DNA from: an uncultured Acidimicrobiia bacterium
Lineage (GTDB): Bacteria; Actinomycetota; Acidimicrobiia; Spongiisociales; Spongiisociaceae
Direction: 5' to 3'
NCBI GenBank assembly: GCA_964516495.1
Contig: CAZEZF010000002.1
Location: forward strand, 1,231 to 65,230
Length of the DNA stretch: 64,000 nt
Shown here: positions 43,031-61,937 of the stretch, piece by piece
How the letters are laid out: each line of letters starts with the position of its first letter
Position numbering within the stretch: the first letter of the stretch is position 1
Notes under the pieces: generated by a model
Database searches by the model: none
What the model saw: the letters and a program-made list of their open reading frames with translations, nothing else
What the model was told of the DNA's origin: nothing
Translations under genes and position numbers: made by a program

Positions 43031-44431
43031 ATGAGGCTGCTGGTGCAGGGTGGCCGCATCGTGACGGCCACCCAGGACTATGTGGCGGATATCCTCGTGG
43101 AGGATGGTCGGATAAAGGCCATCGGTGATCTCGAAGGGATCGAGGCGGACGAGATAATCGACGCCGCCGACCACCTGATCTTCCCCGGTGGGATAGATCC
43201 GCACACCCATCTGGACACCCCGGTGGCCGGGACGGTGATTTCCGACGATTTCGACTCGGGGACCCGGGCGGCGGCCGCGGGCGGAACCACAACCGTGGTG
43301 GACTTCGCCATCCAGGACAAGGGCGTCGATCCCCGCGCCTCCCTGACTAGATGGCACGAGATGGCGGCCGGTAAGGCGGCGGTCGACTACGCCTTCCACC
43401 AGATCATCACCGATCTGCCCGACCGGATGCTCTCCTCACTGGACGGCGTCGTTGCGGAAGGAGTTACCAGCTTCAAGCTGTTCATGGCTTATCCGAACGC
43501 CTGGATGTTGGACGACGGGGTGATCTTCAAGGCAATGAGAAGGACCGCCGACAACGGCGGTTTCATGATGCTGCACTGCGAGAACGGTCACGCGATCGAC
43601 GCCCTGGTCAAGGAATCGCTTGCCCGAGGCGACTCAGACCCGGTTTTCCATGCCCGCACCCGACCGACCATCGCTGAGGATGAGGCGACCAGACGAGGTA
43701 TAGCGTTAGCCGAGATGGCGGGTGTGCCCGTCTATGTGGTCCACATGTCATCCGCCGGGTCGGTGCGCGCCATGGCCGAGGCGCGCGAGCGAGGGGTCCG
43801 AGCCTACGCGGAGACCTGCCCCCATTACCTCCTGCTCACGGACGACAAGTTGGCCGAGCCGGACTTCCGGGGCGCCAATTATGTATGTTCTCCGCCTCTC
43901 CGGCCGGCGGAGAACCACGGGCCCCTGTGGAACGGATTGCGGGTCGGCGACCTGCAAGCGGTCGGGACCGACCATGCCCCCTTCTTCTTCGAGCAACGCC
44001 AGGTCGGGAGGGGCGACTTCAGCAAGATACCCAACGGTCTTCCCGGTATCGAATGGCGGCTCAGCCTCCTGTACCACCACGGGGTGGTCGGCGGGCGGAT
44101 TTCACTAAACAGGTTTGTGGAGATTTCCTCCACCAACGCGGCGAAGCTGTTCGGCCTGTACCCGAGGAAAGGGGAGATCGCACCCGGATCGGACGCTGAT
44201 CTGGTGGTGTTCGACCCGGCGGGCACCACCACCCTGTCGGTCGACACGCAGGTGACCAACTGTGACCACAATCCTTACGAGGGCAGCGTGCTGGCGGGCG
44301 CGATCCGCCGAGTGGTCCTGCGTGGGAAGATCATCGTGCGCGGCGGTCGCTACGTCGCCTCGACATCCGGAGGCGTGTTCATAAGGAGCGCCGAGTCGGC
44401 CGCTCTCAGCAGCTCGACCCTGGTGTCGTGA
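43031..44431 (+). CDS. Dihydropyrimidinase / D-hydantoinase (cyclic amidohydrolase)
   Basis: Metal-binding HxH (DPHTHLD), carboxylated-Lys region, about 465 aa. Confidence 0.75.
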   Translation: MRLLVQGGRIVTATQDYVADILVEDGRIKAIGDLEGIEADEIIDAADHLIFPGGIDPHTHLDTPVAGTVISDDFDSGTRAAAAGGTTTVVDFAIQDKGVDPRASLTRWHEMAAGKAAVDYAFHQIITDLPDRMLSSLDGVVAEGVTSFKLFMAYPNAWMLDDGVIFKAMRRTADNGGFMMLHCENGHAIDALVKESLARGDSDPVFHARTRPTIAEDEATRRGIALAEMAGVPVYVVHMSSAGSVRAMAEARERGVRAYAETCPHYLLLTDDKLAEPDFRGANYVCSPPLRPAENHGPLWNGLRVGDLQAVGTDHAPFFFEQRQVGRGDFSKIPNGLPGIEWRLSLLYHHGVVGGRISLNRFVEISSTNAAKLFGLYPRKGEIAPGSDADLVVFDPAGTTTLSVDTQVTNCDHNPYEGSVLAGAIRRVVLRGKIIVRGGRYVASTSGGVFIRSAESAALSSSTLVS

Positions 44432-44447
44432 AAGGAGACCTGAAGCT

Positions 44448-45284
44448 GTGAGAACTGCATTGGTACAGATGGGCGCCCACTACGACCGGGACCGAAACGT
44501 GGACCGAGCGGAGCGTTTGGTCCGGCAGGCGGCGGATCGGGGCGCCCGGATCGTTTGCCTGCAGGAACTGTTCCACACCGTCTACTTTCCCTACGAAATG
44601 GACTCCCGGCACCTGGATCTCGCCGAGCCGATCGACGGTCCCACAATGGAGCGGATGCGCTCTCTGGCCCGCCAGTTGCAGGTGGTCCTGATCGCTCCGA
44701 TCTACGAGAAGGCGATGGATGGATTGCTGTACAACAGCGCCCCGGTGATCGGGCCGGACGGCGACTTGATGGGAATCTACCGCAAGAGTCACATCCCTAT
44801 CGTCTCGGTGCCGACCCTCACCGGAGTCGAGAAGTACTACTTTGCGCCCGGCGATACAGGTTTCGTAACGTTCCCGACCCCGTTCGGTGTGACCATCGGG
44901 ATCCTGATCTGCTACGACCGGCATTTCCCTGAGGCGGCCCGCACCCTCGCCCTGAACGGCGCCCAGATAGTTTACGTCCCCACCGCCACCACGGGCATGA
45001 GCCGCTACCTATGGGAGCTTGAACTCCAAGCCCACGCCGTCGACAACATCTACTATGTGGGTGGCGTCAACCGGGTCGGGGTGGACCAGGGCGGTTCCGA
45101 TTCGCACTTCTACGGCTCGTCCATGTGGGTCGATCCCAAAGGGAGGATCATCTGCCAGGCAAGCGACACCGATGATGAGGTGCTGGTCGCCGACCTGGAT
45201 CTGGCGGTTATTCCCCAGATCCGCAACGACTGGGGCTTCTTTCGCGACCGGCGCCCCGACCTTTACGGTCGCCTCAGTACCTGA
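44448..45284 (+). CDS. Carbon-nitrogen hydrolase family (beta-ureidopropionase / N-carbamoyl-amino-acid amidohydrolase-like)
   Basis: Nitrilase-superfamily E-K-C pattern (CLQELF..., ICYDRHFPE). Confidence 0.65.
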   Translation: MRTALVQMGAHYDRDRNVDRAERLVRQAADRGARIVCLQELFHTVYFPYEMDSRHLDLAEPIDGPTMERMRSLARQLQVVLIAPIYEKAMDGLLYNSAPVIGPDGDLMGIYRKSHIPIVSVPTLTGVEKYYFAPGDTGFVTFPTPFGVTIGILICYDRHFPEAARTLALNGAQIVYVPTATTGMSRYLWELELQAHAVDNIYYVGGVNRVGVDQGGSDSHFYGSSMWVDPKGRIICQASDTDDEVLVADLDLAVIPQIRNDWGFFRDRRPDLYGRLST

Positions 45285-45308
45285 GATTCACGAGCGAGGA
45301 GCGAAATC

Positions 45309-46076
45309 ATGGACACTGGTCTGGCGGGCAAGGTGGCGGTGGTTACCGGCGCGAGCCGCGGTATCGGGCGGGGCATAGCCCGGGCTCTAGCGGCCGAAGG
45401 GGCGCGGGTTGCCGCACTTGCCCGGACCGGCGGTGATCTAGCCGACACGGTTGCGAGTCTGGAGGGGAGTGAAAGCGACCATCTCTCGATTACATGCGAC
45501 GTTACCGACCCCGACCGGATTGCGACGGCCATGGATCAGGTTCACACCCGGTTCGGACGTATCGACGTTCTGGTCAACAACGCCGGCCGACGGCAGAACT
45601 TCGCCAGGTTGCACAAACTTGAGGTGGCCGAGTGGAGGGCGACTGTCGAGGCCAACCTGTCCTCGGTTTTCTACATGTCGCAGGCGGTGACCGGCCCGAT
45701 GATCGCCCAGGGATCGGGGTCGATAGTCAACATCGCCTCGATCGCGGGACCGGTGGCCTTCGCCCGCATCGGCGCCTACTCGGCGGCCAAGGCGGGCGTT
45801 ATCGCCCTTACCAAGGTGATGGCGGTTGAGTTGGCCGAGTTCGGCATACGCACCAACGCCGTGGCGCCGGGATGGACCGAGTCTTCCATGAACTACGAGC
45901 TACGTACCGAACCGGCCAACCGGGAACTGTTCGAGACGATTCGCGACTCGACGTTGTTCAAGAGGTTCGCGGTCCCGTCCGAGGTGGCGAGCGCGGTGGT
46001 GTTCCTCGCCGGAGACGGCGCTAGCTACATCACCGGCGAGACGCTCACCGTAGACGCCGGCTGGGTGGCGGTCTGA
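45309..46076 (+). CDS. SDR family oxidoreductase
   Basis: TGASRGIGRGIA cofactor motif and YxxxK region. Confidence 0.75.
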   Translation: MDTGLAGKVAVVTGASRGIGRGIARALAAEGARVAALARTGGDLADTVASLEGSESDHLSITCDVTDPDRIATAMDQVHTRFGRIDVLVNNAGRRQNFARLHKLEVAEWRATVEANLSSVFYMSQAVTGPMIAQGSGSIVNIASIAGPVAFARIGAYSAAKAGVIALTKVMAVELAEFGIRTNAVAPGWTESSMNYELRTEPANRELFETIRDSTLFKRFAVPSEVASAVVFLAGDGASYITGETLTVDAGWVAV

Positions 46077-46150
46077 ACCACGGGAATCACGGTCATTCGT
46101 TCCTTCGGACCGGCGCGAGGCGAAGGTCCGGTCAGCGGGTGGTCGGTGGA

Positions 46151-47161
46151 TCATGCCGCCGGGTTGAAAACCTCGATTATCTCCTCGTAGTTCTCGGTGA
46201 TGGGGAGCAGAGCCGGGTAGATGTTCGGCCGGATCGAGTAGGCGTTCACCTGCCGTAGGCACTGCTCCGGAGTCCCGGCCGCGGTGAGAGATCGGACGAC
46301 CTCGGCCGGAACGAGGGGCATGGCCGCCTCGATCCCTCCCTCCGAAGGGGGCCAGCCACCCATGGCGCGGCGCACGCTGTCCAGCAGATCCTGGTCGACT
46401 CCGCTCGCCCGAGCGATGTGAGGTTGCTGACCCAGGTACATGGTGGTCATGCGGGTGGCGACGGACAGCGCCTTCTCCTCATTCTCATCCATGGCTATGA
46501 CGATGGTCTGGGGAAGGTCCAGATCATGCAACTTCCGGTCGGCGGCTCGGGCACCCCGTTCGATATGGCGGAGGGCGTCGGCGAGGTAGGTGAGGGATGT
46601 GAAGCCGTTGAGCATCACCCCGTCGGCGACTTCGCCGGATAGGGCCAGCATTTGCGGTCCGGTTGCCCCCACGTAGATCGGGACCTGTTTAGGAAGGTGA
46701 GCCACCCCGTGCCCGAGATCGAGCCGCAGGTCCCGGACCGTCACCAACTCACCCTCATAGGTGACCGTTTCGAGTGCCAGGAGCCGACGGGTGACCTCGA
46801 TGTATTCCCGCATCTGGCGGATCGGCCGACGGCGGTTGATTCCCTGCTTCCACGCCAACGGATCCCAGTACGCTCCGAGCCCGAGCAGCATGCGGTGCGG
46901 CGCCATCTCGTCAAGGGTGGCGAAGGTGAGCGACATCAATGAAGCGGGTCTGGTCCACGAGTTCACGACCCCTGTCCCGAGCTTGATCGTGGATGTAGCA
47001 TAGGCCATGGCGCCCAAGACAGAAATGGCGTCGCGAGCGGTACGGGTCTCGCACACCCACACCGATTCGTAACCGAGCGCCTCCATCCGCGCCGCCAGAC
47101 TCACCTGCCGTCGAGGATCCGGTCGATCCAGGAAACACATGCCTACCCGCCGACTGGTCAT
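46151..47161 (-). CDS. LLM-class flavin/F420-dependent oxidoreductase
   Basis: Luciferase-like family pattern (ALGYESVWVCE..., LLGLGAYW). Confidence 0.6.
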   Translation of the reverse strand: MTSRRVGMCFLDRPDPRRQVSLAARMEALGYESVWVCETRTARDAISVLGAMAYATSTIKLGTGVVNSWTRPASLMSLTFATLDEMAPHRMLLGLGAYWDPLAWKQGINRRRPIRQMREYIEVTRRLLALETVTYEGELVTVRDLRLDLGHGVAHLPKQVPIYVGATGPQMLALSGEVADGVMLNGFTSLTYLADALRHIERGARAADRKLHDLDLPQTIVIAMDENEEKALSVATRMTTMYLGQQPHIARASGVDQDLLDSVRRAMGGWPPSEGGIEAAMPLVPAEVVRSLTAAGTPEQCLRQVNAYSIRPNIYPALLPITENYEEIIEVFNPAA

Positions 47162-47592
47162 CCGGGTATCCTCCCAGGAGAGTGTCGAAAAAGACGGGGG
47201 TGGGTCCACCGCCTGCTGACCAGGGAGTTTATCATCGAACTTCGGGCCGGCAGGAGGTTTTCAAGTACCTTCCTGTGTTGTCCTGAATCACTGTTTATTT
47301 TGTCGTTGTGGTCGGTTGCGTGGTTAGGGGACGGGTTTTTGTCCTAACCATGTTGCATACCGATAGGTAACTGCGATCACCAAGCGGCCCGTTTGGGTAC
47401 CGGCCGGGCCGGGATCATGTTGAACGTACCTGACCCTAGGTAGGGGGTATGGGGGGACGCGTTTCGGCGCTGAGGCGGCGGCGGTTGGGGGTGGTACCCA
47501 CTAGGGGAGTCAACCAGATAATAAGGATGTTTCTCGCGGCCTTTGGTCCTCAGGGGCCGAACAGTTCTGGCGGCAAGCACGTTATTCACCAA

Positions 47593-47717
47593 CCCCGATG
47601 ATTCTTCATGCCCCCGTCACGCCGAACCCGAAAAGGCCAAGTCAAACCCACTTTCTTGGTCGTCCCGGCGTTGTAACTCGTTCGTACCCATTCAAACCCC
47701 TGCATGAAAAATCGGGG
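47593..47717 (-). mobile_element. MITE family A copy 4, internally deleted derivative (about 125 bp)
   Basis: Both TIRs present, central ~80 bp missing; CCAA/TCAA flanks. Confidence 0.6.
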
Positions 47718-47813
47718 TCAATAAATCTCAGAATCAGGACAAGCAACTACCGAGCGTCAGGACCTCTACCGAACCTCGGACGAAGTAGGTCGGTAGACTG
47801 TCCGCCATCTTCC

Positions 47814-49112
47814 ATGAGAGGGACTGTGGCACGCGACTCCATCTACACGGCGGCGCTCCGTCGGGTGAGCGACGAATACATTCGGCGCAACCCCGCCTCT
47901 CGGGATATTGCCCGGCGCTCTGCGAAGGTACTTCCGGGCGGCACGACGCGTACCACGACCTTTTTTGCCCCGTTTCCTCCCGTCCTGGTCAGTGGCCGGG
48001 GTTCTCAGGTGGTGGATGTTGACGGCAACCGGCGGGTCGACTACCTGAACAACTACACGTCGCTCATCCTGGGCCATGCCCATCCGAATGTAATGGCGAG
48101 AGCGATGACCGTGGCGGAGCGGGGTAGCGCCTTCTCGTCCCCCACCATCCAAGAGGTTCGGCTGGCGGAGATGCTGGTTGAACGGGTTCCATCGGTGGAA
48201 CAGGTTCGATTCACAAATTCGGGTACCGAGGCGACGATGGCCGCGCTGCGGCTAGCGCGCGCCTTTACCGGGCGACCCAGGGTGGCCCGGTTCGAGGGCG
48301 GCTACCACGGGACCCACGACTACACCGCCACGCCGGGGGCCGGAATACCGGATGCGGTTGACGAACTGGTCGTTACCCTTCCTTTCAACGATGTGGCCGG
48401 TTGCGGGGAGCGGCTGGTGGAGGTGGCTGATTCGCTTGCGGCGGTGATCGTAGAACCGGTGCTCGGGGCCGGAGGAGTGATAGCCGCCGAACGGGACTTC
48501 CTGGCGTTTCTCCGAGAGGTAACCCGCCGGGAAGGGGCGTTGCTGATATTCGATGAGATCATCTCGTTGCGTTTGCACACCGGGGGGGTTCAGGCCATCT
48601 ACGAATTGGAACCGGACCTCACCACCTTCGGCAAGATTATCGGTGGGGGTTTCCCGATCGGCGGGTTCGGCGGACGGCGGGACGTGATGGCCCTTCTCCA
48701 CCCGATCAACGGCACGATAAGTTGGGGGGGAACCTTCAACGGAAATCCGGTCAGCGCATCGGCCGGCATAGAGACTCTCCAGGCCTTGACTCCGCCGGTC
48801 ATTGACGGGCTTAATCAGGCCGGAGACGAGTTGGCGGAGCGACTCGACAAGGTGTTCGAGATCTCCGGACTACCGGTCGGGGTGACAAACTACGGGTCGC
48901 TGTTCAACATCCATGCCACCGGCGATCCGATCCGTGATAACCGGGCGGTGGCGGGCGCCGATCCTGAACTGGCCGAAATCCTCCATCTCGGTTTGATGAA
49001 CCGCGGCTTCTTCCTTGCACCCCGCGGCATGGGTTGCCTTTCCACGGCCATGACAGCAGATGACCTGGACGGCTTGGTGGCGGCGGTCGAGGATTTGGTG
49101 GCGAACCTGTGA
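47814..49112 (+). CDS. Class III aminotransferase (glutamate-1-semialdehyde aminomutase-like); N-terminal part of track ORF is MITE translation
   Basis: PLP-fold motifs GGTEATMAALRLARAFTGR, FDEIISLRLHTGG. Confidence 0.7.
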   Translation: MRGTVARDSIYTAALRRVSDEYIRRNPASRDIARRSAKVLPGGTTRTTTFFAPFPPVLVSGRGSQVVDVDGNRRVDYLNNYTSLILGHAHPNVMARAMTVAERGSAFSSPTIQEVRLAEMLVERVPSVEQVRFTNSGTEATMAALRLARAFTGRPRVARFEGGYHGTHDYTATPGAGIPDAVDELVVTLPFNDVAGCGERLVEVADSLAAVIVEPVLGAGGVIAAERDFLAFLREVTRREGALLIFDEIISLRLHTGGVQAIYELEPDLTTFGKIIGGGFPIGGFGGRRDVMALLHPINGTISWGGTFNGNPVSASAGIETLQALTPPVIDGLNQAGDELAERLDKVFEISGLPVGVTNYGSLFNIHATGDPIRDNRAVAGADPELAEILHLGLMNRGFFLAPRGMGCLSTAMTADDLDGLVAAVEDLVANL

Positions 49113-49158: not shown

Positions 49159-50304
49159 TTATGCGGCTCTGCCCGCCAGGACTCCGGCAAGTTCTTCAAG
49201 CCCTTCGATATTGTGGCCCGCAACCAACTCGTCCACGAACGGTAGGGCTGCCACCAGCCCGCGCGCCAACGGTTGGAACTTGGGATCGCCCGCCAGCGGG
49301 TTGACCCAGATTACAGTGTGGGCTTGGCGGGAGAGCCGTTGCATGGCCCAGGCCAAGCGGTCGGGTGGACCCATCTCGAGGCCGTCCGAGCATATGATCA
49401 CCAGGGCTCCACGGTTGAAACGCAACTTGCCCCATGTCTGTACATAGCTGCTCAGCGACTCGCCGATCCTGGTGCCGCCGTCCCAGTCAACCACCAACCC
49501 CGTTGCCTGTTCGAGGGCTGTGTTTGCGTCCCGGACCCGCATCGCGCTGGTTAGACGGGTAAGCCTGGTTCCGAAGCAGAACACCTCCACTCGTTGTGAA
49601 GCCCTGCCGATGCCGTAGGAGAACTGCACCAGAGCACGTGAGAACCCCGCCATGGAGCCCGATACGTCGACAATCACGACGATGGGACGCGGGCGGTCCA
49701 CCCTCCGCCTGCGGCGCAGGTGAAACAGGTCGCCCCCGTAGTACAAGGAGTCGCGCACACTGCGGCGCAGGTCGATTCGAGGACCTCTAGATGCGGGGCG
49801 GGTACGGCGGGTACGCCTCTGCGGCAACTGCAGGCGGGGAACCAAGCGGGCTAGCCGCCGGAACTCCTCCTCGGTCCATTGGTCAAAGTGTTTGGTTCGC
49901 AAGACCTCGACACTCGACGCTTGTGGACCGCCCCCGGACGGACGGTCCAGGTTGTCGCCCTCTAGCAACTCCAACTCCGTATCCTCCCTGCCGAACGAAA
50001 CAGAGGCCGGTTCCGCATCTCCGTCGTTTTCAGCGACGCCCAACGGGAGCAACGGAGGGGGAGATCCGCTTTCTGAACCGACGAAGTACGCATCAAACGC
50101 GGCGTCGTAGATCGCCAGATCGCGGCGCCGGTTGATGAGGGTGATGCGGCCGGCCCAATACAGGTCCCGAAGGTCGGCGGGGTCCAATCCGGCCACCGCC
50201 CTCGTGTATGCCAGAACCTGGCCGGCGCCGACTGTCGCTCCCTGAGCCCGGAGCAGGTGTCCGAACCGGACCAAACCGGTCGTCGGGCCGGACTCAGACA
50301 CCAT
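49159..50304 (-). CDS. VWA domain protein, CoxE-like
   Basis: MIDAS-like IVVIVDVSGSM, CoxE-family body; adjacent to MoxR ATPase. Confidence 0.65.
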   Translation of the reverse strand: MVSESGPTTGLVRFGHLLRAQGATVGAGQVLAYTRAVAGLDPADLRDLYWAGRITLINRRRDLAIYDAAFDAYFVGSESGSPPPLLPLGVAENDGDAEPASVSFGREDTELELLEGDNLDRPSGGGPQASSVEVLRTKHFDQWTEEEFRRLARLVPRLQLPQRRTRRTRPASRGPRIDLRRSVRDSLYYGGDLFHLRRRRRVDRPRPIVVIVDVSGSMAGFSRALVQFSYGIGRASQRVEVFCFGTRLTRLTSAMRVRDANTALEQATGLVVDWDGGTRIGESLSSYVQTWGKLRFNRGALVIICSDGLEMGPPDRLAWAMQRLSRQAHTVIWVNPLAGDPKFQPLARGLVAALPFVDELVAGHNIEGLEELAGVLAGRAA

Positions 50305-51229
50305 CCAGAATCCCGGGCGCCCGGCTCCGAACGGTGGACAGATCATCATGGTCCTTGATTACCGATCCCAAGCTGAGATCCAGGTTGTCGGAGGTCACCT
50401 GATCCTCGCCCAGCTGATTGAGCGCTCGCGCCCAACTGATGGTCTCCGCCACGCCGGGCTGTTTGACCAACTCCAGGTCACGCAGCCGGGCCACCACCCG
50501 GGTGGTGCTCCGAGCGAGCCGCACCGGTACTTCGGGTGCGCGGGCGACGACAATGGCCACCTCTCTCTCCAGGCTGGGGAAGTCGATCCAGTGATAAAGA
50601 CAGCGGCGCTTCAGGGCGTCATGCAGTTCTCGGGTACGATTGGATGTGATGATCACCGGGGGTGCCGCCGAGGCCCGCACGGCGCCTATCTCGGGAATGG
50701 TGATCTGGAACTCGGACAGGATCTCGAGCAGGAACGCCTCGAACTCGTCGTCCGCCCGGTCGATCTCATCGATAAGCAGGACACACTCCGAACCTCGCCG
50801 GATGGCTTTCAGGAGGGGTCGTTCGACGAGGAAACGCTCGGCGAAGAGTTCATCCCGGTCACCTGATTCCGGCGGGTCGTCCGCCGATTGTCGCAGGTAC
50901 AAGAGTTGGCGCGGGTAGTCCCACTCGTACAGAGCCTGGTTGGCGTCGATACCCTCGTAACATTGGAGCCGGATGAGTTCGACCCCCAGCCCGCCCGCCA
51001 GCGCCTTGGCTACCTCGGTCTTCCCTACCCCGGCCTCTCCTTCCAGTAGCAGCGGCTGGGGCAGGGTAAGAGAAAGATAGATGGCGGTCGACAGACCTCG
51101 GTCGGACAGGTACGCCTGGTCGGCGAGCATCCGGGTGACATGGGTTATGTCACCGGAGAACCCGGCGTTGACGACTCCGGTCAAGGACGTTCGAAGATGG
51201 CCGCCAGTCCTTGTCCGCCGCCGATGCAC
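50294..51229 (-). CDS. MoxR-family AAA+ ATPase (CoxD-like)
   Basis: Walker A GEAGVGKTEVAKALAG, Walker B LLIDEIDRA. Confidence 0.75.
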   Translation of the reverse strand: MHRRRTRTGGHLRTSLTGVVNAGFSGDITHVTRMLADQAYLSDRGLSTAIYLSLTLPQPLLLEGEAGVGKTEVAKALAGGLGVELIRLQCYEGIDANQALYEWDYPRQLLYLRQSADDPPESGDRDELFAERFLVERPLLKAIRRGSECVLLIDEIDRADDEFEAFLLEILSEFQITIPEIGAVRASAAPPVIITSNRTRELHDALKRRCLYHWIDFPSLEREVAIVVARAPEVPVRLARSTTRVVARLRDLELVKQPGVAETISWARALNQLGEDQVTSDNLDLSLGSVIKDHDDLSTVRSRAPGILDGV

Positions 51230-52356
51230 ATCGTCACGATGCCGCGCCGCCCGCCAGTCCGTTCCAGGGCGTGGAGCAGTTTGATTACCAGGATGGCCCC
51301 GGTGGCGCCCACGGGATGCCCCAATGCGATAGCGCCGCCGGAGATGTTGGTCTTGTCGGGATCCAGGTCCGCGTCCCTGATCACGGCTACCGCTTGGGCG
51401 GCGAACGCCTCGTTGAGTTCCACCAGATCTATATCGTCGAGGGTCAAACCCGCCTTGTCGAGCACCTTGGGGATAGCGAGAGCCGGAGCGTATCCCATCA
51501 CCTCAGGATCGATACCGCTCACCGCCCAGTCAACCAGCCGCAACCGCGCGTCGGCGCCTCTGGCATGAGCCGATTTCTCGCTCATAAGCACCAACGAAGC
51601 AGCCCCGTCGTTGATCCCGGACGAGTTACCCGCGGTAACGGTGCCGTCTTTCACGAACACCGGACGCAGCCGGGCGAGGCTCGCCTCGGTCGTGGCCGGC
51701 CTCGGGTGCTCATCAACCATGAACGGCTCCTGCCGGGGTACGTCTACCGCGACGATCTGATCCTCGAAGTGGCCCTCCTTGATAGCGATAGCGGCGCGGT
51801 GTTGACTTTCGGCCGCGAACCGGTCCTGTTCACGGCGGTTTACGTTGTAGCGTTCGGCCACTCGCTCCGCCGTTACACCCATCGGGTAGTCGCCGAACGG
51901 ATCTGTTACCAGCGAAAGAGTGCCGTCCACCAACTTGCGATCACCCAGCCTCCAACCGTTGCGAGCCTTGAAGTCGAGGAACGGCTGGCTGCTCATGTTC
52001 TCGTTGCCCCCGGCGACCACGATGTCGGCGTCTCCCAGCATGATCTGCTGGGCGCCGGTGATGATCGCCTGAAGTCCGGAGGAGCACAGGCGGTTGACGT
52101 TCATGGCGGTGGTCGAGGAGGGAAGGCCGGCCTCGAGAGCACAACGCCGGGCGTTGTAGGCGTCAGGGCCGACTTGGCCGATCTGACCCATAACCACCTC
52201 GTCGACCTCGCCGGTTTCCACCCCGGCCCGCTGCAACGACTCCTTGACGGTGACAGCGCCGAGTTTGTATGAGTCGACCCTGCTGAGAGAGCCGCCGTAG
52301 GCGCCTATCGCGGTACGCGCCGCCCCGACCACAACTACCGGATTCACATTTACCAT
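51181..52356 (-). CDS. Acetyl-CoA C-acyltransferase (thiolase)
   Basis: Active-site NVNRLCSSGLQAI, C-terminal GHPVGATGA, CIGGGQG. Confidence 0.85.
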   Translation of the reverse strand: MVNVNPVVVVGAARTAIGAYGGSLSRVDSYKLGAVTVKESLQRAGVETGEVDEVVMGQIGQVGPDAYNARRCALEAGLPSSTTAMNVNRLCSSGLQAIITGAQQIMLGDADIVVAGGNENMSSQPFLDFKARNGWRLGDRKLVDGTLSLVTDPFGDYPMGVTAERVAERYNVNRREQDRFAAESQHRAAIAIKEGHFEDQIVAVDVPRQEPFMVDEHPRPATTEASLARLRPVFVKDGTVTAGNSSGINDGAASLVLMSEKSAHARGADARLRLVDWAVSGIDPEVMGYAPALAIPKVLDKAGLTLDDIDLVELNEAFAAQAVAVIRDADLDPDKTNISGGAIALGHPVGATGAILVIKLLHALERTGGRRGIVTMCIGGGQGLAAIFERP

Positions 52357-52624
52357 GTCCGTTCCTTTGTATAACGGTGACTGCCCGAACGCAGGTCCCT
52401 TCTCCGGCCAAACCCGCCAGGTACGACCGACTCTCCATCCTAACCCTTTCCGTGTCCTCAACTACCACAGAAAGAGTCCCGGTTCCAGATAGGACCCTAG
52501 GGTGAACTCGGGCGATCGCCGTGGTTGAGACGTGGTTTTGGCGTGAGAGCATGTACCACATATGAACCGAAACCCGCGGGAGTTCGTATCTATGATGCAA
52601 ACGAGACTAGACATTCTTAACCCG

Positions 52625-52643
52625 TATCTCTAGAATAGAGATA
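52625..52643 (+). promoter_or_regulatory. Perfect palindrome TATCTCTA-gaa-TAGAGATA abutting the ATG of the 52643 gene (candidate autoregulatory operator)
   Basis: 8-bp arms, 3-bp spacer, overlaps start codon. Confidence 0.45.
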
Positions 52644-53182
52644 TGGAGATAGTTAAGCTATTTTCAGGGGCGATAAGTGGGGCAGACTTCGCGGATGATC
52701 CACACTCGGTCAAGTACATGGGCGAGTTGGATCGACACTCCGAAGCCTTCCACCGTCTCTTTGAGCTACTCAATGATCCTGCTAACGAGCAACGCCTCGT
52801 CGATGCCGAGACCCATGATCTGCCGGCCTTGGCCGGCATCGTCCGGTTCGTCGAGGAGGAACCGGCCATCAGGTATGTGCTGTCGCGCGGGCGATCAAGT
52901 CTTCGATTTCGCCAGGCGGTCGGAGTGGCGGTAAAGCTGAAAATGCAGAAGCTCGGCCGGCGTACGACAGGTCGAAAGGGCGTTGTGAAGAGTGCTGTGT
53001 ATTTCACAAGGGCTGAGCGCTATATCGCCGATCCCGACGCCGCTGCTAGTTCCGCGTCAAGTGCGCTTGAGGCACTTGACGCGGTGGCAAGCATGGGCGA
53101 TGAGACGGAACGCCTCCAGACCGGGCGTGAGCTGATGGAGGCCCTGGCGGCGACTCGGCGGAGCGCGGGTCGTCCTTTCTGA
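52643..53182 (+). CDS. Hypothetical protein (179 aa), first gene of a pair with a PIN gene
   Basis: No recognisable domain; stop 3 nt before the GTG of the PIN frame. Confidence 0.35.
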   Translation: MEIVKLFSGAISGADFADDPHSVKYMGELDRHSEAFHRLFELLNDPANEQRLVDAETHDLPALAGIVRFVEEEPAIRYVLSRGRSSLRFRQAVGVAVKLKMQKLGRRTTGRKGVVKSAVYFTRAERYIADPDAAASSASSALEALDAVASMGDETERLQTGRELMEALAATRRSAGRPF

Positions 53183-53184
53183 GG

Positions 53185-53632
53185 TGTTGATACTGCTTGA
53201 CAGCGGTCCGCTGGGGCTTCTTAGCAACCCGACTGTCCGTGGGTCGGGACGCGATGCCCGCGTATGGGCGCGGAACCACCTTGTATCCGGCGCGCTTCTC
53301 ATAGTCCCCGAGATAGCCGACTACGAGTACGCCGTGAGCTGATCAGGGCTGGAAAGCAGATGGGCGTGGCGCGACTCGACGAGTTGTGTGAAAGTTTCGG
53401 TTATCACCCCCTCTCAACCGCGATCATGCGCGATGCAGCGTGGCTGTGGGCTCGGGCTCGTAACCAGGGTTACCCTACGGCTCATGACGCGGCGCTTGAT
53501 GGCGACGTCCTCTTGGCAGCGCAAGCCCGCCGCCTGAAGGCCGAACAGCCTACCGAGACCGTCGTAGTGGCAACTACGAACCCCTCCCACCTAAGGCGGT
53601 ATGTCGATGCCAGGGTCTGGCGCCAGGTGTGA
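53185..53632 (+). pseudogene. PIN-domain (VapC-like) gene with a frameshift near 53330
   Basis: VLILLDSGPLGLLSNP...VPEIADYEY in one frame, continuing RRELIRAGKQ...DAALDGDVLLAAQA...VVVATTNPSHLRRYV in track ORF 53264..53632. Confidence 0.5.
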
Positions 53633-53806: not shown

Positions 53807-53909
53807 AGGAGGGTGCCGGGAAACCCCCGGCTTGGCCCGACATCCGATGGTAAACTCCCTGGTCAGCGGACGGAGGGCCAATCTAATCACCCGTTTTCAG
53901 CACCCTCCT
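53807..53909 (-). repeat. Repeat family C copy 1: about 100-nt structured element closed by GGAGGGUGC/GCACCCUCC pairing, starting at the stop codon of the deaminase gene
   Basis: About 80 percent identical to 63083..63181; internal hairpins (ccggggguuucccgg etc.). Confidence 0.55.
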
Positions 53910-54900
53910 AGGAACTCCAGTATTCCTGCTGGATGGTGGAGGATTCGGCGACCAGGTGGGGTCCCCTCACCTCTATATGGCGCTGACCGGTACCCAGGAT
54001 CTCGCGGCAACCTACACCGCGCATGGTCGGGTTGAGGGGGTTGGCGCCGGTGTATTCCAACAGGTGGTGTTCGCTCATGCCGTACACCAGCCGGTTGAGG
54101 CCGCCCCAGTACATGGATCCGCTGCACATGGCGCAGGGTTCGCAGCTGGTGTAGAGAGTGGCGTCCGCGATCTGTTCGGAAGTGAGTTGGTCCACCGCCA
54201 TTCGCATCAGGTTGGTCTCGGCGTGGTTGAGAGGGCTTTTGCCGGTGATGTCGGAGTTCTCCGCCTCAAGGAGGATGTTTCCATCCGGGTCGGCCAGCAG
54301 CGCCCCGAAAGGCAGGTTTCCGTTGGCCACGGAGCGTTCCGCGACCTTGATCGCCCTCCGCAGCAGTCGCTCATCCATCTCGCTCAGGTCGCCGGTTACC
54401 GGTCGGGGGCCGCCTTCGGCGAAGAAATCGATGTGTACCGCCGACGCCTCCTCGATAAGGTGTGGTCCGCTCACCTCTATATGGCGCTGACCGCTGTCGA
54501 AGATGTTGCGACATCCCACGCCCCGCATCGTGGCCGTGCCGGGATCGCCTCCGGTTATTTCGAGAAGGTCCAACTCGCTCATGGCATAGACCATGCGGTT
54601 GAGCCCGCCCCAGTACATGGCGCCCGAGCACATGGCGCAGGGTTCGCAGCTGGTGTAAAGGGTGGCCTCGGCGATCTGTTCCGGGGTGAGGGTGGTAACC
54701 GCCAGGTTCATGAGGTTGGTCTCCGCATGGTTGAGCGTGTTGCGCCCGGTTACCCCGGTGTTCTCCGCCTCGAGCAGGATGTTTCCGTCACGGTCGGCCA
54801 TGATCGCCCCAAAGGGCATGTTCCCGTTGGATACCGATCTGGCCGAAACCTCGATCGCCTTTCGCAGGAGCCGTTCGTCATGTGAGCTGAGTACTGTCAT
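53908..54900 (-). CDS. Tandem-domain nucleoside/nucleotide deaminase (two CDA-fold TadA/guanine-deaminase-like domains)
   Basis: HAETNLM ... CEPCAMCSG zinc motifs present twice; the two halves are about 75 percent identical (504-bp internal tandem repeat). Confidence 0.7.
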   Translation of the reverse strand: MTVLSSHDERLLRKAIEVSARSVSNGNMPFGAIMADRDGNILLEAENTGVTGRNTLNHAETNLMNLAVTTLTPEQIAEATLYTSCEPCAMCSGAMYWGGLNRMVYAMSELDLLEITGGDPGTATMRGVGCRNIFDSGQRHIEVSGPHLIEEASAVHIDFFAEGGPRPVTGDLSEMDERLLRRAIKVAERSVANGNLPFGALLADPDGNILLEAENSDITGKSPLNHAETNLMRMAVDQLTSEQIADATLYTSCEPCAMCSGSMYWGGLNRLVYGMSEHHLLEYTGANPLNPTMRGVGCREILGTGQRHIEVRGPHLVAESSTIQQEYWSS

Positions 54901-55156
54901 GGAAAGATGCTATTGGGACCGACCTGTTACCGGGGTCTTATTCAGCTTCATTCTACGCAGGGTAGTTGCAAACCGGATCCTGGGCGGGCCCGCCGTTGAT
55001 ATCCCACAAAGAGATACGGCCGGATCGCTGGACTCGGGCAGGCGTCATAGAAGCCGTCATTCCGCACCATTAGGTCGAACGAGATTCGAGCCCCTTCAGT
55101 GGAATGGCCTACCCCCTCCGGCTTGACGGGGCGAACAGGGCAGAAGGCCAGTGAGG

Positions 55157-56323
55157 TTATGTTGCTCGACCTACCTCACTCACCAGGTCAAGTAGCGGTA
55201 CAGCCTCCGTGTCCGGGGTGACCCGGTAGCGCTCCTCTCCGGGATAGACGACAAACCTGGCTTCCGGTTGCACATCGGTACAGCCGCTGTGGAAGCCTTT
55301 GCGGGGCCGGGGCGTAAGGCTCCTTTTCGCTTCTATCGCCCACGGGCGATGGCCGGGCAAAGTGATGATCAGGTCGATCTCCGCTCCGCCCGACGATCGG
55401 TAGTAGCTCGCCTCGCTTCCGTCCGGAAGCCGAGATATGAGGGTTTCGATGACAAAACCCTCCCAACTTGCCCCGACCACCGGATGCCCTAGTAGGTCTT
55501 CCTTCGAGACAAGGCCCAGCAGAGCATGCACGATCCCGCTGTCACGGACATAGACTCTCGGGGACTTGACAAGACGCTTGCCGACATTCTTACGCCATGG
55601 CGGTAGGCGCCGTACCAGCAGCAGGTCCACCATAAGGTCCAGGTAGCGGGAGACGGTCTTGCCGTCCACGCCGAGCCCGCGCGCGAGGGCGGATGCGTTG
55701 AGTGGACCTCCTTGGGAGTGGGCCAGCATCACCCAGAATCGCCGGAGGGTTTCGGCGGGTATACGGGGGCCGAACTGGGGGATGTCGCGCTCGATATAGG
55801 TCCGGATGAAGTTCAGTCGCCAGCGAAAGCTCCTGCGGTCATCGGCGGCCAGGAAGCTGTCGGGAAAGCCGCCTCGCACCCAAATTGAATCCCGTTCGCT
55901 TGCATCAACCTCTGACACGTCCAGCGGACCGAGTTCAAGGTAGGCGATTCGTCCGGCCAGGCTTTCACCTGACTGTTGGAGCAGATCCATCGAGGCCGAC
56001 CCCAGCAGCAGAAACCGTCTCACTCCCCGGCCGCTTCGTCTTCCCTGATCTATGATGCCGCGCAGGGCTTGAAACAGGCCTGGGGTTCTATGCACCTCAT
56101 CCAGGATCACCAGCCTGTGCTGATGGCCTGCCAGATAGAGTTCGGGTTCGGATAGCTTGGCGTGGTCGGATGGTGATTCCAGGTCGAGATAGACGGAGTC
56201 GATCGCGTCGGCGATCTGCCAGGCCAGGGTGGTCTTCCCCACCTGCCGGGGTCCGATCAAGGCGACAGCAGGGTATTCGGATAGCAGTTCATGCAAGTGT
56301 GGGAGCAGGCGGCGGGGAATCAT
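55157..56323 (-). CDS. COG1373-type AAA+ ATPase (AAA_14 + DUF4143), second copy in window
   Basis: Walker A GPRQVGKTT, Walker B VILDEVH, DUF4143-like C-terminus. Confidence 0.6.
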   Translation of the reverse strand: MIPRRLLPHLHELLSEYPAVALIGPRQVGKTTLAWQIADAIDSVYLDLESPSDHAKLSEPELYLAGHQHRLVILDEVHRTPGLFQALRGIIDQGRRSGRGVRRFLLLGSASMDLLQQSGESLAGRIAYLELGPLDVSEVDASERDSIWVRGGFPDSFLAADDRRSFRWRLNFIRTYIERDIPQFGPRIPAETLRRFWVMLAHSQGGPLNASALARGLGVDGKTVSRYLDLMVDLLLVRRLPPWRKNVGKRLVKSPRVYVRDSGIVHALLGLVSKEDLLGHPVVGASWEGFVIETLISRLPDGSEASYYRSSGGAEIDLIITLPGHRPWAIEAKRSLTPRPRKGFHSGCTDVQPEARFVVYPGEERYRVTPDTEAVPLLDLVSEVGRAT

Positions 56324-56482: not shown

Positions 56483-57286
56483 TTATGGGGCTTGACCCGC
56501 TGTTGGTGTCTGGTTCAGGTGCATCTTGCGCAGGGAGTGGCGAACCAGATCCTGGGCGGACCTGGCGCTGATGTCCAGGAATCCATCCGGCCAGCCTTCC
56601 GAAAGGCCGCCGTACTCGTTTATCTCCGACTTCCGGTAAGTCGTGATGCCGTCACTCTTCTCCGCGAATAGGAGGGTGACCAGTTCCCTGGTCGTATCGG
56701 TCTCATCTGACGCCACCTGGGTCCGCAGTTGATTGACAAGATGGTCGCTGTGGGTCTCCACGATTATCTGGCGGCCCGCTCGAACGAAAGCCAGGAGGAA
56801 GTCCGCAAGTCGCTTCTGTAGCGCCGGGTGAAGGTGTAACTCCGGCTGCTCGAGTATCAACAGATCCGCCGGAATACTCAACAAGCACTGCAAGATGACC
56901 GGCAGCACCTGACTAACTCCTGTACCGACCGCCGAAAGGTAGACGGGCCTTGGTGCATCGGATACGTGGACGCTCAGAGCCCGCTGTCCATAGCGATCCC
57001 GCACCTCCACGTCCACCGCTTCCGCTATACCGAACCACCGGAGCCACTGGTCCATTGCATCCCGAAACGGAACCAGATCCTCATGACCGGTGGGTAGCGG
57101 GACGTTAACCCACCGATCACTTGATCCATCCAGCACTATGGCCGCGTTCTCGCCGCGGGTACCGACATGTGTATTTTCCAGCCGAGTCATAGACGCAGGT
57201 CCTTCCTGTGGAGATACCCGCACTGGACCTAGATAGTGAAGCCTCGAATCAAGTAGTCCGTCGGACGCAGCCTTCATCCATAACAA
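56483..57286 (-). pseudogene. SMC/ABC-like AAA ATPase (AAA_21 + DUF3696-like) lacking its N-terminal Walker A region
   Basis: LHYLGP, Walker B LLILEQPELHLHP, H-loop ETHSDHL present; P-loop absent; MITE copy 5 lies immediately upstream. Confidence 0.5.
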
Positions 57287-57604
57287 TGGGTGGTCCTCCT
57301 CCGAGGCATTTTGTTTGTCCTAAACGTCGATCAACCAGCATCCGGCGTCTTCGGCAACCCGGATCATGCTGTCTCTGGTTCTCTCATACACATAGGAGGC
57401 GGAGACCGTTTGATGGTCTGGGCGTATCTTTAGTTCTCCGGCCTCGGTCTTTCGACCCGACTCCAACCCATCACCCGTTGCTTCGACACCGAAGTTCCCT
57501 GGAAGCGTGAGCGTAGTGAGCGCCCCTTCTATCAGAGGCCAGAAGGACTCGTAGTGGGCATGACCTAGTGTCCCGAATGTCTCGACCCAGTTGTCGACCC
57601 TTAA

Positions 57605-57805
57605 CCCTGATTCTTCATGCCCCAGACACACCGACCTCAAAAAGGCCATGTCAAGCGCAGCACCGTGGGGCGTCCCGGCGTTCACCTCAGGGTGAAGGGT
57701 AACACCCCAGCCAGGCGGGGCCACCAAGCGGCTATCTTCCCAGGTCAGAGAGTTTATTGCATCTTTCTCGGCTACCCAATCAAACCCCTGCATGAAAAAT
57801 TGGGG
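57605..57805 (-). mobile_element. MITE family A copy 5 (201 bp), perfect TTAA target duplication (57601-57604 / 57806-57809)
   Basis: Full-length, both TIRs. Confidence 0.8.
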
Positions 57806-57970
57806 TTAATGCCCCGACAGCCTCCAATTCCTTCACATCATCCAAGGTGAGCATCACTTCGTAGCTGGTTGCCAGGTTCAATAACCGTTGCAATACGGTC
57901 CCGAGGTTACCGCAGGAGTTAAGAAGTTCCAGAGCCAAGCAAACCGGGATCGAGTTGGAGGGGCGGTCCC

Positions 57971-58904: not shown

Positions 58905-59510
58905 CTAGTCCTGTGAAGTCGCTACCAGGTTCAGTAGATATGGATCGGTGATCGGGGTCTGGGTTATTTCCGCTATGCGGTAGCCGGATAGCGCTTCTTC
59001 TATCGCCGCCGCGATGGCGGGCGCCGGACCGATGATCCCGGCCTCGCCGGCGCCTTTCGCTCCCCAGGGCATCTCAGGCGCCGGTGATTCGAAGTGAAGG
59101 ACCGTCATATCCGGGATCTCCGTGGTGGTGGGGAGGTGATAGTCGAGGAATGAGGTTGACAGAGGGTTAGCCCACTCGTCGTAGTGGAGTTTCTCGAGCA
59201 GCGCCCCTCCTATACCCTGGGCTATCCCGCCGACCACCTGGCCTCTGACGATCTGGGGGTTGATCACCGTGCCGCAATCAAGGGCGACTATGTATTCGAG
59301 CACCCGGACCTGGCCGGTCCCGACATCGACCGAGACGATCGCGGCGTGGGAGGCGTTGGTGTAGGTGGCGGCTGCGTTGACCCGCCCGTACTCGTCCGGT
59401 ACGTGCTCGATTCCGGGAGGGTCATAGGTGGCGGTCGCTTCCAAGCCCGGATCGACGCCCGAAGGCAGGTCAACGGTCCTGATGTTGGCGCGCGGTGGTG
59501 ATCGGCACAC
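58905..59510 (-). pseudogene. C-terminal ~200-aa fragment of a second xanthine-dehydrogenase-family Mo-binding large subunit
   Basis: VDVGTGQVRVLEYIVALDCGTVINPQIVRGQVVGGIAQGIGGALLE...WGAKGAGEAG aligns with the C-terminus of the intact 40422..42797 product. Confidence 0.65.
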
Positions 59511-60387
59511 CGATCCTGCTGGCCGGTCTCGGAGAGATGATGACCGAGCACTCCGGGGTGATGAACCTGGGTGTGGAAGGAATGATGCTCGGAGGGGGAG
59601 TGGTGGGTTTCTGGATGAGCACCCAGCATGCGTCGATACCTATGGCGGTGGGGGCGGGTGTCGGGGCGCTGTTCGCGCTGATTCATGCTTATCTGGCGGT
59701 CACCCTGCGCGTCAACCAGATCGTCTCCGGATTGGCGCTGGTAATGACCGGAACCGGGTTCGCCGGTTTCGTGGGCAGTTTGGCCGACTCCGCCCTCATC
59801 TACGCTCGGCCTGTGTCTTCTTTCGGGCCGGTCTTCGGCGAGTGGCTTCGGGAGTCGCCGCTGGTCGGGCCCTTGATATTCGGTCACGACTGGGTCGTAT
59901 ACATGTCGTGGGTTCTCGTGGCTTTGGCTGCCTTCTGGTTGTTCCGGACCAGGGCGGTTCGGGCGGTGGGGGAAGATCCCGCGGCGGCCGACACGGTTGG
60001 TATTCCGGTTGGGATTACCCGATATGTCTATACGATGATCGGCGGCGCCGGGGCCGGGATGGGGGTACCTACCTGATGGTCGGTATTTTCGCCACCTACC
60101 AGCACGGCATAACGGCCGGTCTCGGTTGGATAGCCTTCGCGCTGGTGATCTTCGCCGGCTGGCGACCGTGGCGAGCCCTGGTAGCGGCGTATGTGTTCGG
60201 CGCCCTCCGTAACCTCGGCTTCTCGCTACAGATTCTGGGCGCCGAGATACCCTCGGACGTATTGAACGCCTTGCCGTTCGTGCTGACAATCGTCGCGCTG
60301 ATAATCATCTCGGCTCGGCCGGCGGCAGCCCGCCGCTACAGCGCACCGTCGGCCCTCGCCGTTCCGTACGCCCGGGAGAGCCGCTGA
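59495..60387 (+). pseudogene. BMP-family (nucleoside/sugar type) ABC transporter permease, N-truncated and frameshifted near 60062 (G-run)
   Basis: ILLAGLGEMMTEHSGVMNLGVEGMML... ends GMGVPT* and continues in the +1 frame as YLMVGIFATYQHG... (track ORFs 59495 and 59428). Confidence 0.55.
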
Positions 60388-60608: not shown

Positions 60609-61937
60609 TCAGTGGAACTGCTTGGCCTCGGTGGAGCCCACCAGTGACAGGGTCGAACCGCGTCCGCCGGTCGTGACCTGCACCACCTCGTCGAAGTATC
60701 CCGCGCCTACTTCGGCCTGGTGCCGGGTGGCGGTGTAACCGAGCGACTCCGCGCCGATCTCGGTTTGCTGCAACCGGCTGTAGGCCGCCATACCGTCGTG
60801 GTGGTAGGACCGGGCCATGTCGAAGGTGTGGTAATTGAGCAGGTGCCATCCGGCCAGGGTGATGAACTGGAACCGGTATCCCAGCGAGGCGATCCGATCC
60901 TGGAAGGCCGCGATCTGTTCATCGCTCAGATGGCGCCTCCAGTTGAACGAGGGGGAGCAGTTGTAGGCGAGCGTCTTGTCCGGAAACCGCTCATGGATGG
61001 CCGCCGCAAAGGTTGCCGCCTCCTCGAGGTCCGGCGCCGAGGTCTCGAACCACAGCAGGTCGGCGTAAGGCGCGTAGGCGAGAGCCCTCTGCGTGGCGGC
61101 TTCCATTCCCCCACGGACTCCGTGGTATCCCTCCGCGGTTCGTTCCCCGGTGACGAAACGACGGTCGCCTTCGTCCACGTCGCTGGTCAGGAGACGGGCG
61201 TCCCGGGCGTCGGTCCTCGCCATGATGAGGGTGGGAACATCCAGCACGTCGGCCGCCAGCCGCGCCGCGGTCAGCGTACGGATAAACTGGGAGGCCGGTA
61301 CCAGCACCTTGCCTCCCATGTGTCCACACTTCTTTTCGGAGGAGAGTTGATCCTCGAAGTGGACACCGGCCGCGCCCGCCTCGATCATCGCCTTCATCAA
61401 CTCGAATGCGTGGACCGGGCCGCCGAACCCGGCTTCGGCGTCGGCCACTATGGGAGCGAACCAGTCGGCTCCAGTCCGGCCTTTGATGTAGTCGGCCTGG
61501 TCGGCGCGGGTGAGGGCGTTGTTGATGCGCCTTACCAAGCTCGGAACGCTGTTGGACGGATAGAGACTCTGGTCCGGATAGGTCTGGCCGGCCACGTTGT
61601 TGTCGGCCGCCACCTGCCAGCCGCTCACGTACAGAGACGTGAGTCCGGCCCGCACCATCTGCACTGCTTGGGCGCCGGTGAGTGCGCCGAAGGTTCGGAC
61701 GATCGGTTCGGTCTGTAGCAGGCGCCGGAGCCGTTCCGCCCCGGCTCGGGCGATGCTGTGCTCGATCCGGAGGCTACCCCGCAGGCGGAGTACGTCGAGG
61801 GCGGTATACGGGCGCTCGACACCCTGCCACCTTGCCTCCTGGTCCCAACGGGCTTGGAGAGCGTCTGCTCTCCCGAACCTGTTCCGCCCATTCCTCGACA
61901 TGATTCCGTACCTCCCCGGTACCGATCCAGTACTCAA
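60609..61937 (-). CDS. aceA: Isocitrate lyase
   Basis: Signature [15 protein letters not shown], 442 aa. Confidence 0.85.

Follow-up and report, generated by a model that had tools for sequence, protein, structure and literature searches.

Deaminases of the TadA and guanine deaminase type are homodimeric enzymes with a central place in nucleotide metabolism and in base-editor engineering, where single-chain TadA dimers have been built by hand. The TadA-TadA* proteins engineered for adenine base editors (ABE7.10 type) are obligate dimers made by fusing two TadA-like domains head-to-tail; these are artificial, with a long flexible linker, a DNA substrate and one catalytically relevant subunit. 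A duplicated deaminase fold, as a one-chain pseudo-dimer or an obligate heterodimer, is also known from E. coli Cdd (1AF2), APOBEC3G and APOBEC3B, CDADC1 (9HFQ) and ADAT2/ADAT3, and in all of these one domain is catalytically dead. Here, we analyzed a stretch of 64,000 nucleotides (64 kb; hereafter the window) from an uncultured Acidimicrobiia bacterium that carries a gene for a deaminase of 330 amino acids (aa) with two domains in tandem. Unlike the engineered dimers, this protein family is natural, has a linker of 3–12 residues and scores below the NCBIfam cut-off for TadA. Unlike Cdd, the APOBEC3 proteins, CDADC1 and ADAT2/ADAT3, the window protein belongs to the nucleobase/nucleoside deaminase branch and has its catalytic residues intact in both halves, as do nearly all of its orthologues. 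A search of the available literature gave no account of naturally occurring tandem nucleobase deaminases from this branch. The protein is an architectural variant within a known enzyme type and reveals no new kind of system.

A Pfam scan of the protein matched PF00383 twice, with 148.1 bits against a cut-off of 25. This score, the zinc and catalytic motifs and the alpha/beta/alpha cytidine deaminase (CDA) fold place it in the cytidine/deoxycytidylate deaminase zinc-binding superfamily. The original prediction, which was made from the sequence alone, was of two complete deaminase-fold domains, each with HAE and PCxxC motifs, and this was borne out. PF00383 was found in both halves, both have the full set of zinc ligands and the catalytic Glu is kept in each (E60 and E228; Table 1). 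The predicted spacing of exactly 504 bp was also correct. The 18-mer ctctatatggcgctgacc occurs at both 53971 and 54475 (coordinates are window positions throughout and the deaminase gene is on the minus strand), a spacing of 504 nt or 168 codons. This is the sole self-offset with signal, giving 69% DNA identity compared with no more than 37% at every other offset. The halves are similar, as predicted, at an identity slightly below the stated figure of about 75%: they share 68% of residues in protein (158 residues without gaps, E = 3e-85) and, in DNA, 71% over 474 aligned nt and 74% over the best 300 nt. Third codon positions of the two halves are only 52% identical and the duplication predates at least nine species, so that it is old.

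In a search of 5.8 billion proteins, two-domain orthologues at 74–85% identity made up 33 clusters. When one genome per species was scanned, the tandem gene was present in nine species of Acidimicrobiia metagenome-assembled genomes (MAGs), which to judge by record names are largely sponge-associated and of which several are complete chromosomes. Carriers include Candidatus Spongiisocius and the 'SB06xx' bins. The zinc ligands of both halves and the catalytic Glu of the C-half do not vary across the 33 clusters, and the ratio of nonsynonymous to synonymous substitution (dN/dS) against orthologues was 0.08–0.19 for the N-half and 0.10–0.24 for the C-half. Purifying selection acts equally strongly on the two halves. 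The linker differs in sequence and length among orthologues and is 7 residues shorter in a subgroup of 323 aa.

Divergence of the halves, together with the recurrence of this two-domain gene in 33 clusters and nine species-representative genomes, excludes the assembly duplication that had been raised as an objection to the original prediction. More generally, it is exceedingly improbable that an assembly or frameshift error joined two neighboring genes or duplicated one. The halves differ at 29% of nucleotides, and the same unbroken open reading frame (ORF) occurs in the 33 clusters, which stem from independent short- and long-read assemblies, complete chromosomes included. The only related point in favor of an artefact is that the NCBI annotation of several MAGs gives a 208-aa product from an internal start. 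Public entries (MXY12186.1, MYH77102.1, MYE09471.1 and others, in the cluster of P0018) give either just a 208-aa 'nucleoside deaminase' or, at full length, a 'hypothetical protein', and members of the family are named TadA at the Joint Genome Institute (JGI). The two-domain nature of the family is partly hidden by database annotation.

The best solved relatives by sequence are Msd (Msmeg_3575) of M. smegmatis (PDB 5XKO-5XKR, 8WLV-8WLX), B. subtilis guanine deaminase (GuaD, or bGD; 1WKQ), Arabidopsis guanosine deaminase, TadA, yeast cytosine deaminase and NE0047 of Nitrosomonas (2G84/4HRQ). Msd, an unfused homodimer of 158-aa chains, is the top PDB match both by sequence (E 3e-17, about 31% identity) and by fold. 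From these comparisons, the window protein appears to belong to the TadA/guanine deaminase/Msd branch of the cytidine deaminase fold. Those enzymes of the branch that have been characterized are dimeric, and in some of them the active sites lie between the subunits or the subunits show cross-talk (PMC11963756; PMC9081823). Msd places W*95 of the neighboring subunit in the active site while F29 stacks the ligand (PMC11963756; PMC9081823), and such a Phe and Trp stacking pair has been termed GD-like (PMC9081823). F30 and W97 in the N-half and F198 and W265 in the C-half match this pair and are conserved, so that the aromatic pair seen in CDA-fold guanine and guanosine deaminases is kept. In alignments, M28 of the N-half and L196 of the C-half stand where Msd has its ligand-anchoring E27; the window family thus has Met or Leu at this position. 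An extra insertion region between alpha4 and alpha5 is common to the family and Msd. The di-proline of Msd (P122-P123), in its alpha4-alpha5 gating loop, falls in a region left unaligned by HMMER, where the C-half has NPLNPT and the N-half DPG. GuaD, NE0047 and plant GSDA (7DBF) consist of separate subunits, and only the first approximately 110 residues of each domain align by sequence with them; their C-terminal specificity region is not alignable. We also built an AlphaFold2 (AF2) model from an alignment of 118 sequences that included distant tandem families. This model had a mean predicted local distance difference test score (pLDDT) of 91.9 and a predicted template modeling score (pTM) of 0.63, with a mean pLDDT of 69 for the linker block (residues 161–170). 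An alignment of 28 close orthologues alone gave a mean pLDDT of only 48.7. Structural homology with Msd is seen at the level of the monomer.

Gene neighborhoods of relatives, a survey of which was suggested with the original prediction, contained a Bmp/PnrA importer, an operon like that of xanthine dehydrogenase (XDH) and a thiolase-MoxR-CoxE group. Receptors of the Bmp/PnrA type bind nucleosides, and proteins of the CoxD/CoxE type serve in the maturation of molybdenum (Mo) hydroxylases. A divergent Bmp/PnrA ATP-binding cassette (ABC) importer, made up of a Bmp protein verified by Pfam, a double ABC ATPase and two BPD_transp_2 permeases, adjoins the deaminase gene in L001-3, L008 and L081. A co-directional XDH-family operon with FAD, 2Fe-2S and molybdenum cofactor (MoCo) subunits lies directly upstream of it in L004-6 and L085. 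In part of the clade an upstream arrangement of isocitrate lyase (ICL), LysR and Rieske/VanA is found. Single-domain homologues with 52–57% identity lie in a co-directional operon in the order Bmp-deaminase-ABC-permease-permease-(Rieske)-XDH (L022, L025-28, L030-31). Purine-catabolic neighbors of this kind, as expected for a guanine or guanosine deaminase, are therefore present in many relatives, and the window itself has only remnants of them. This conserved set of three, with importer, deaminase and XDH-like enzyme, suggests the scavenging and catabolism of purine nucleosides or related N-heterocycles. Among the roles originally proposed, nucleoside or base salvage is thus the one favored.

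We think it probable that the window protein is a zinc-dependent, hydrolytic deaminase of free nucleobases or nucleosides, a homodimer written as one chain, and that it carries out the deaminating step of an uptake-and-catabolism module for purines or N-heterocycles. Each half would fold as a complete monomer with His-Cys-Cys zinc ligation and a proton-shuttle Glu, and the 10-residue Gly/Pro linker would run from the final helix of the N-half into the helix that opens the C-half. From the dimeric relatives we infer that the chain forms an obligatory intramolecular pseudo-dimer with two active sites, both of which may be functional. As the neighboring subunits do in Msd, each half would lend its conserved Trp (W97 or W265) to complete the active site of the other. 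In the proposed pathway, a Bmp/PnrA-type ABC importer would take up a nucleoside or base, the deaminase would turn the amino form into the oxo form, and an XDH-family molybdenum hydroxylase with CoxD/CoxE-like maturation factors would oxidize the deaminated product. The likeliest reaction would be guanine to xanthine or guanosine to xanthosine, guanine or guanosine being the most economical and most likely assignment of substrate. The fusion itself would have been born in a tandem array of whole-gene copies and would be evolutionarily reversible.

Several observations weigh against this interpretation. The importer and XDH genes beside the deaminase are degraded in the window, so that the local pathway context is gone, and part of the clade has other neighbors (ICL, NicX), so that the operon link is not universal. 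The pTM of 0.63 leaves the relative orientation of the two halves unfixed. Replacement of the E27 anchor by Met or Leu implies that the substrate differs from that of Msd, and Msd, the closest solved relative, itself lacks both deamination of natural bases and a second acidic proton shuttle. Because the C-terminal third, the part that in guanine and cytosine deaminases holds the specificity elements and the second proton shuttle (bGD D114, NE0047 E143), does not align to bGD or NE0047, this shuttle and the substrate cannot be read from the sequence. In addition, the N-half catalytic Glu is retained in 31 of 32 informative clusters but is Ala in P0005 (E60A), and the N-half Trp is lost in three clusters (W97S/A). 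These losses hint that the two sites may be non-equivalent.

Non-equivalent sites would be expected if the protein were a sub-functionalized heterodimer in one chain, in which the halves act on different substrates or one is mainly regulatory or structural (half-of-sites), as in ADAT2/ADAT3, E. coli Cdd or APOBEC3. We consider this doubtful, although part of the data fits it. Fixed residues specific to one half occur at 28/196 (the position of Msd E27; M28 compared with L196), at 48, 49 and 54 in the beta2-alpha2 gating loop (T48-G49 compared with S216-D217, N54 compared with S222) and, where the second gating element begins, at 110 and 111 (L110-D111 compared with H278-H279). The C-half catalytic positions are invariant, whereas E60A and W97S/A are seen in N-halves, and the distant tandem protein P0122 lacks the N-half Cys ligands. 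However, every catalytic residue is present in both halves of the window protein and of 31 of the 32 informative clusters, dN/dS is equal in the two halves, and hybrids of N- and C-halves with arbitrary switch points persist as single genes, which argues that the halves are still interchangeable. In a related and unlikely version, the fusion would be bifunctional: the sites would have diverged after joining, in their gating loops and at the anchor position, and one chain would deaminate two imported aminated heterocycles with each site completed by the other half. If true, the pair might consist of a nucleoside plus its own base, or of a purine plus either a pyrimidine or a pterin, and the protein would be a natural single-chain deaminase with two specificities, balanced by recurrent recombination with single-domain forms.

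The other alternatives concern what the enzyme acts on. One is an Msd-like detoxifying enzyme that would leave natural bases alone and act on aza-bases that are mutagenic or xenobiotic (isoguanine, 5-azacytosine, ammeline-type s-triazines). That Msd is the best match by both sequence (E 3e-17) and structure and shares the alpha4-alpha5 insertion region speaks for this, but the identity is only about 31% and the E27 anchor has been replaced. Moreover, the Msd gene lies in a xenobiotic efflux cluster (PMC9081823), a location that the window family does not share since the neighbors in its relatives are an importer and a Mo-hydroxylase, and we regard such an activity as quite unlikely. A nucleic-acid editor, whether a tRNA A34 deaminase (TadA) or a DNA- or RNA-targeting defense or toxin deaminase of the neighboring ATPase genes, is very unlikely. 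TadA is the top NCBIfam match and the JGI name of several members, and candidate defense ATPases are next door. However, the TadA equivalog NF008113 was not reached even with both domains summed (122.9 bits compared with a cut-off of 150), the anti-phage deaminase model NF041025 (NCBIfam) gave 33.3 bits compared with 400, and the PADLOC dCTPase model matched with 25.6 bits over 57 residues of 630 positions, covering the zinc motif only. The ATPase genes are absent at orthologous loci that retain the deaminase, and the one-, two- and three-copy states and catabolic operons of the family are not what would be expected of an essential tRNA enzyme or of a toxin that is paired with an immunity protein. 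The missed cut-off, the catabolic operon context and the varying copy number argue against identity as a tRNA-editing TadA. The suggestion of a defense-related deaminase likewise found no support, either from these models or from orthologues that keep the gene without the ATPases; this is not a defense deaminase. We therefore retain a pseudo-dimeric enzyme of nucleobase or nucleoside catabolism as the probable interpretation.

The single-domain relatives are 166–173 aa long, so the repeat unit equals one whole gene. Similarity between the halves runs from about residue 4 into helix alpha5 and could be traced neither into the sequence before the start codon nor into the tails. When a phylogeny was made of each half, N- and C-halves formed separate groups, and N-halves clustered with a large clade of stand-alone genes that we call S-type. 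In neighbor-joining (NJ) trees with 500 bootstraps, N- and S-type units grouped in 56% and N- and C-halves were sisters in 0.2%. An S-type gene lies directly upstream of the tandem gene in L084 and L085, which puts three units in a row, and P0030 consists of an S-type first half and a C-half. These data favor an origin in which whole-gene copies stood in tandem, were probably shuffled by unequal recombination and became fused, over a recent duplication within the gene. Thus, of the '504-bp in-gene duplication' originally predicted, the 504-bp repeat stands and the in-gene origin is less well supported. Because the NJ support for grouping N with S is only moderate, a duplication within the gene and a later second duplication of the N unit is a less likely alternative. 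Synonymous divergence (dS) between the halves is low in some genomes (0.28–0.47). We considered concerted evolution between the halves as the main process and rejected it because N- and C-halves group separately across species. In L085, the tandem gene is followed by the SLFN_AlbA_2 gene and, beyond that, by a stray 81-aa fragment of an N/S-type domain (10656-10898), which suggests that the variable gene was inserted into a formerly longer deaminase array.

The locus occurs in one-, two- and three-domain states among close relatives. Using 16 positions that distinguish N- from C-halves, we identified several single-domain hybrids (Table 1) that begin as N-type at the 5' end and finish as C-type at the 3' end. 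Every hybrid has a single switch point, the switches fall at five to six different positions, and the order C then N was never seen. The hybrid genes of L011 and L014 occupy the same locus as the tandem gene of relatives. Such hybrids bear the marks of a deletion in which the two 504-nt direct repeats recombined, and the fusion thus collapses recurrently. Their persistence indicates that hybrid homodimers are apparently viable replacements for the tandem protein.

In a library of 1.84 billion representatives the whole family is one cluster, and about 5 of the best 150 clusters (50% identity) are tandem, which makes the architecture rare. A profile search added about 14 further tandem clusters. 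Because the halves within each tandem family are mutual closest relatives (68%, 46%, 50–57% and 63% identity), there were at least four independent tandem duplications among deaminase lineages. Repeated fusion and repeated collapse both support the view that a fused chain is equivalent to a dimer. The other families (P0123/P0049; P0243 with P0270-P0283; P0122) resemble the window protein in length (320–390 aa), in having two PF00383 domains and in their branch, but they share only about 27–38% identity with it and trace to their own duplications. P0122 (389 aa, about 37–40% identity) keeps HAE in its N-half but has CQPHAMS in place of CEPCAMC, so that both Cys ligands are gone. It is a separate case of one half degenerating after fusion.

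The window protein would be a natural and compact single-chain counterpart of the hand-built TadA dimers, in which both sites appear to have been kept. The one-, two- and three-domain states and the N/C hybrids amount to a natural experiment on the benefit of fusing a symmetric dimer, possible gains being stability, obligate stoichiometry and freedom for asymmetry. The gene context also provides a probable pathway, from nucleoside import through deamination to oxidation by a Mo-hydroxylase, for a large family that is named 'nucleoside deaminase' or misnamed TadA. This would add a module for scavenging purines or N-heterocycles to the known metabolism of sponge-symbiont Acidimicrobiia.

In the window, the neighborhood of the deaminase has been altered (Table 1). 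The original prediction placed the gene in an island with PIN genes and COG1373 and DUF3696 ATPases. The two ATPase genes are indeed there, but both are absent between the deaminase and its upstream neighbors in L007, L082 and L084, and they are insertions beside a conserved resident gene. The PIN genes found no support: the overlapping ORFs at 53184-53342 and 53264-53632 (+) had no Pfam match, nor did their frameshift-repaired merge. The remnants of the MoCo subunit and of the permease lie between the deaminase and ICL genes, and in relatives the MoCo subunit gene directly precedes the deaminase. It appears that the ancestral module has decayed in the window and that ATPase genes moved in while the deaminase was kept intact.

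Table 1. Features of the tandem deaminase gene, its surroundings in the window and the switch points of single-domain hybrids
Feature	Position	Strand	Basis or remark
Tandem two-domain CDA-fold deaminase gene, 330 aa + stop	53908..54900	-	ORF; PF00383 x2; 33 orthologous clusters
N-half, residues 1-168, linker at its end included	54397..54900	-	68% identity to C-half
C-half, residues 169-330	53911..54396	-	similarity to N-half; purifying selection
N-half H58-A-E60 (zinc ligand His, catalytic Glu)	54721..54729	-	sequence read directly
N-half P87-C88-A-M-C91 zinc ligands	54628..54642	-	sequence read directly; invariant in 33/33 clusters
C-half H226-A-E228	54217..54225	-	sequence read directly; invariant across clusters
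C-half P255-C256-A-M-C259	54124..54138	-	sequence read directly; invariant across clusters
Gly/Pro-rich linker, residues 162-171 (AEGGPRPVTG), N-half helix alpha5 to C-half alpha1	54388..54417	-	
46-nt hairpin-forming repeat	53834..53879	-	29 nt past deaminase stop
COG1373-type ATPase (AAA_14 + DUF4143; PADLOC PDC-S01)	55157-56323	-	Pfam, PADLOC
AAA_21/DUF3696, NsnB-like ATPase, N-terminally truncated relative to NsnB model	56483-57286	-	Pfam, PADLOC
Remnant of XDH-like molybdopterin subunit (last ~190 of 790 aa)	58923..59489	-	C-terminal part of MoCoBD_2; 89% identity to L085 XDH large subunit
Two out-of-frame permease fragments (BPD_transp_2, Bmp/PnrA importer)	59492..60384	+	Pfam; 86-91% identity to L081 permease
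Thiolase, MoxR-type AAA (CoxD-like), VWA_CoxE, downstream of deaminase	49159..52461	-	Pfam; same order in L083, L084, L085, L013
Isocitrate lyase (ICL)	60609..61937	-	Pfam ICL; syntenic in L007 and L082-L085
P0282 hybrid	switch between residues 28 and 34		
P0285 / L011 hybrid	switch between residues 34 and 48		
P0286 hybrid	switch between residues 54 and 65		
P0287 hybrid	switch between residues 111 and 133		
P0036, P0037, L014 hybrids	switch between residues 133 and 154		

Between the stop codon of the deaminase gene and the thiolase gene lies a slot of varying content. It holds SLFN_AlbA_2/HATPase_c_4 in L083 and L085 (9160-10573), a Tricorn-like protein of 892 aa in L084 (9121-11799) and small ORFs in the window (52643-53632), and this slot 3' of the deaminase behaves as an integration hotspot. 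The two overlapping window ORFs at 53184-53632 (+) are in different frames and look like a single small gene broken by a frameshift; a 179-aa ORF precedes them at 52643-53182 (+). Neither the latter nor the 53184-53632 ORFs had a Pfam or PADLOC match, and their layout is toxin-antitoxin-like.

Further along, the window contains a second XDH-like operon (FAD 39072-39896, Fer2 39937-40389, MoCo 40428-42779) with 40–56% identity to the one linked to the deaminase in relatives. The same region (39072-49112) includes an amidohydrolase (43031-44431), a CN-hydrolase (44448-45284), a short-chain dehydrogenase/reductase (SDR; 45309-46076), a luciferase-like monooxygenase (46151-47209, -) and a class-III aminotransferase (47598-49112). 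By its gene content, this 39–49 kb cluster resembles one for nucleobase or N-heterocycle catabolism, which would fit a region devoted to such catabolism.

The repeat that was thought to abut the deaminase stop codon is near it but lies 29 nt beyond. This 46-nt element has self-complementary ends (GGCCC...GGGCC) that fold into a hairpin, although the surrounding region has a z-score of only -1.7. The other copy (47203-47248, +) is in the opposite orientation at the 5' end of the luciferase-like gene. Rfam identified no RNA family anywhere in the 64-kb window. Dispersed repeats that resemble miniature inverted-repeat transposable elements (MITEs), approximately 100–220 nt long with 70–89% identity and in both orientations, occur at 2052-2269, 6916-7125, 7271-7471 and 27968-28081, and the same family is also found at 47599-47659 and 57597-57809. 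The last copy lies inside an ORF (57320-57793) beside the truncated NsnB-like gene, which suggests that it took part in disrupting this locus. A 44-nt direct repeat with 80% identity links the 3' end of the DUF3696/NsnB-like gene (56533-56576) with the spacer between the deaminase start and the COG1373 gene (54961-55004). This suggests that the COG1373 ATPase gene was inserted into or beside the remnant of a second DUF3696/NsnB-like gene. There are two further pairs of direct repeats in the window. One is of 300 nt with 72% identity and a spacing of 2641 nt (28491-28790 and 31132-31431), and the other is of 93 nt with 87% identity and a spacing of 1312 nt (36185-36277 and 37497-37589) and looks like a repeated intergenic or leader sequence.

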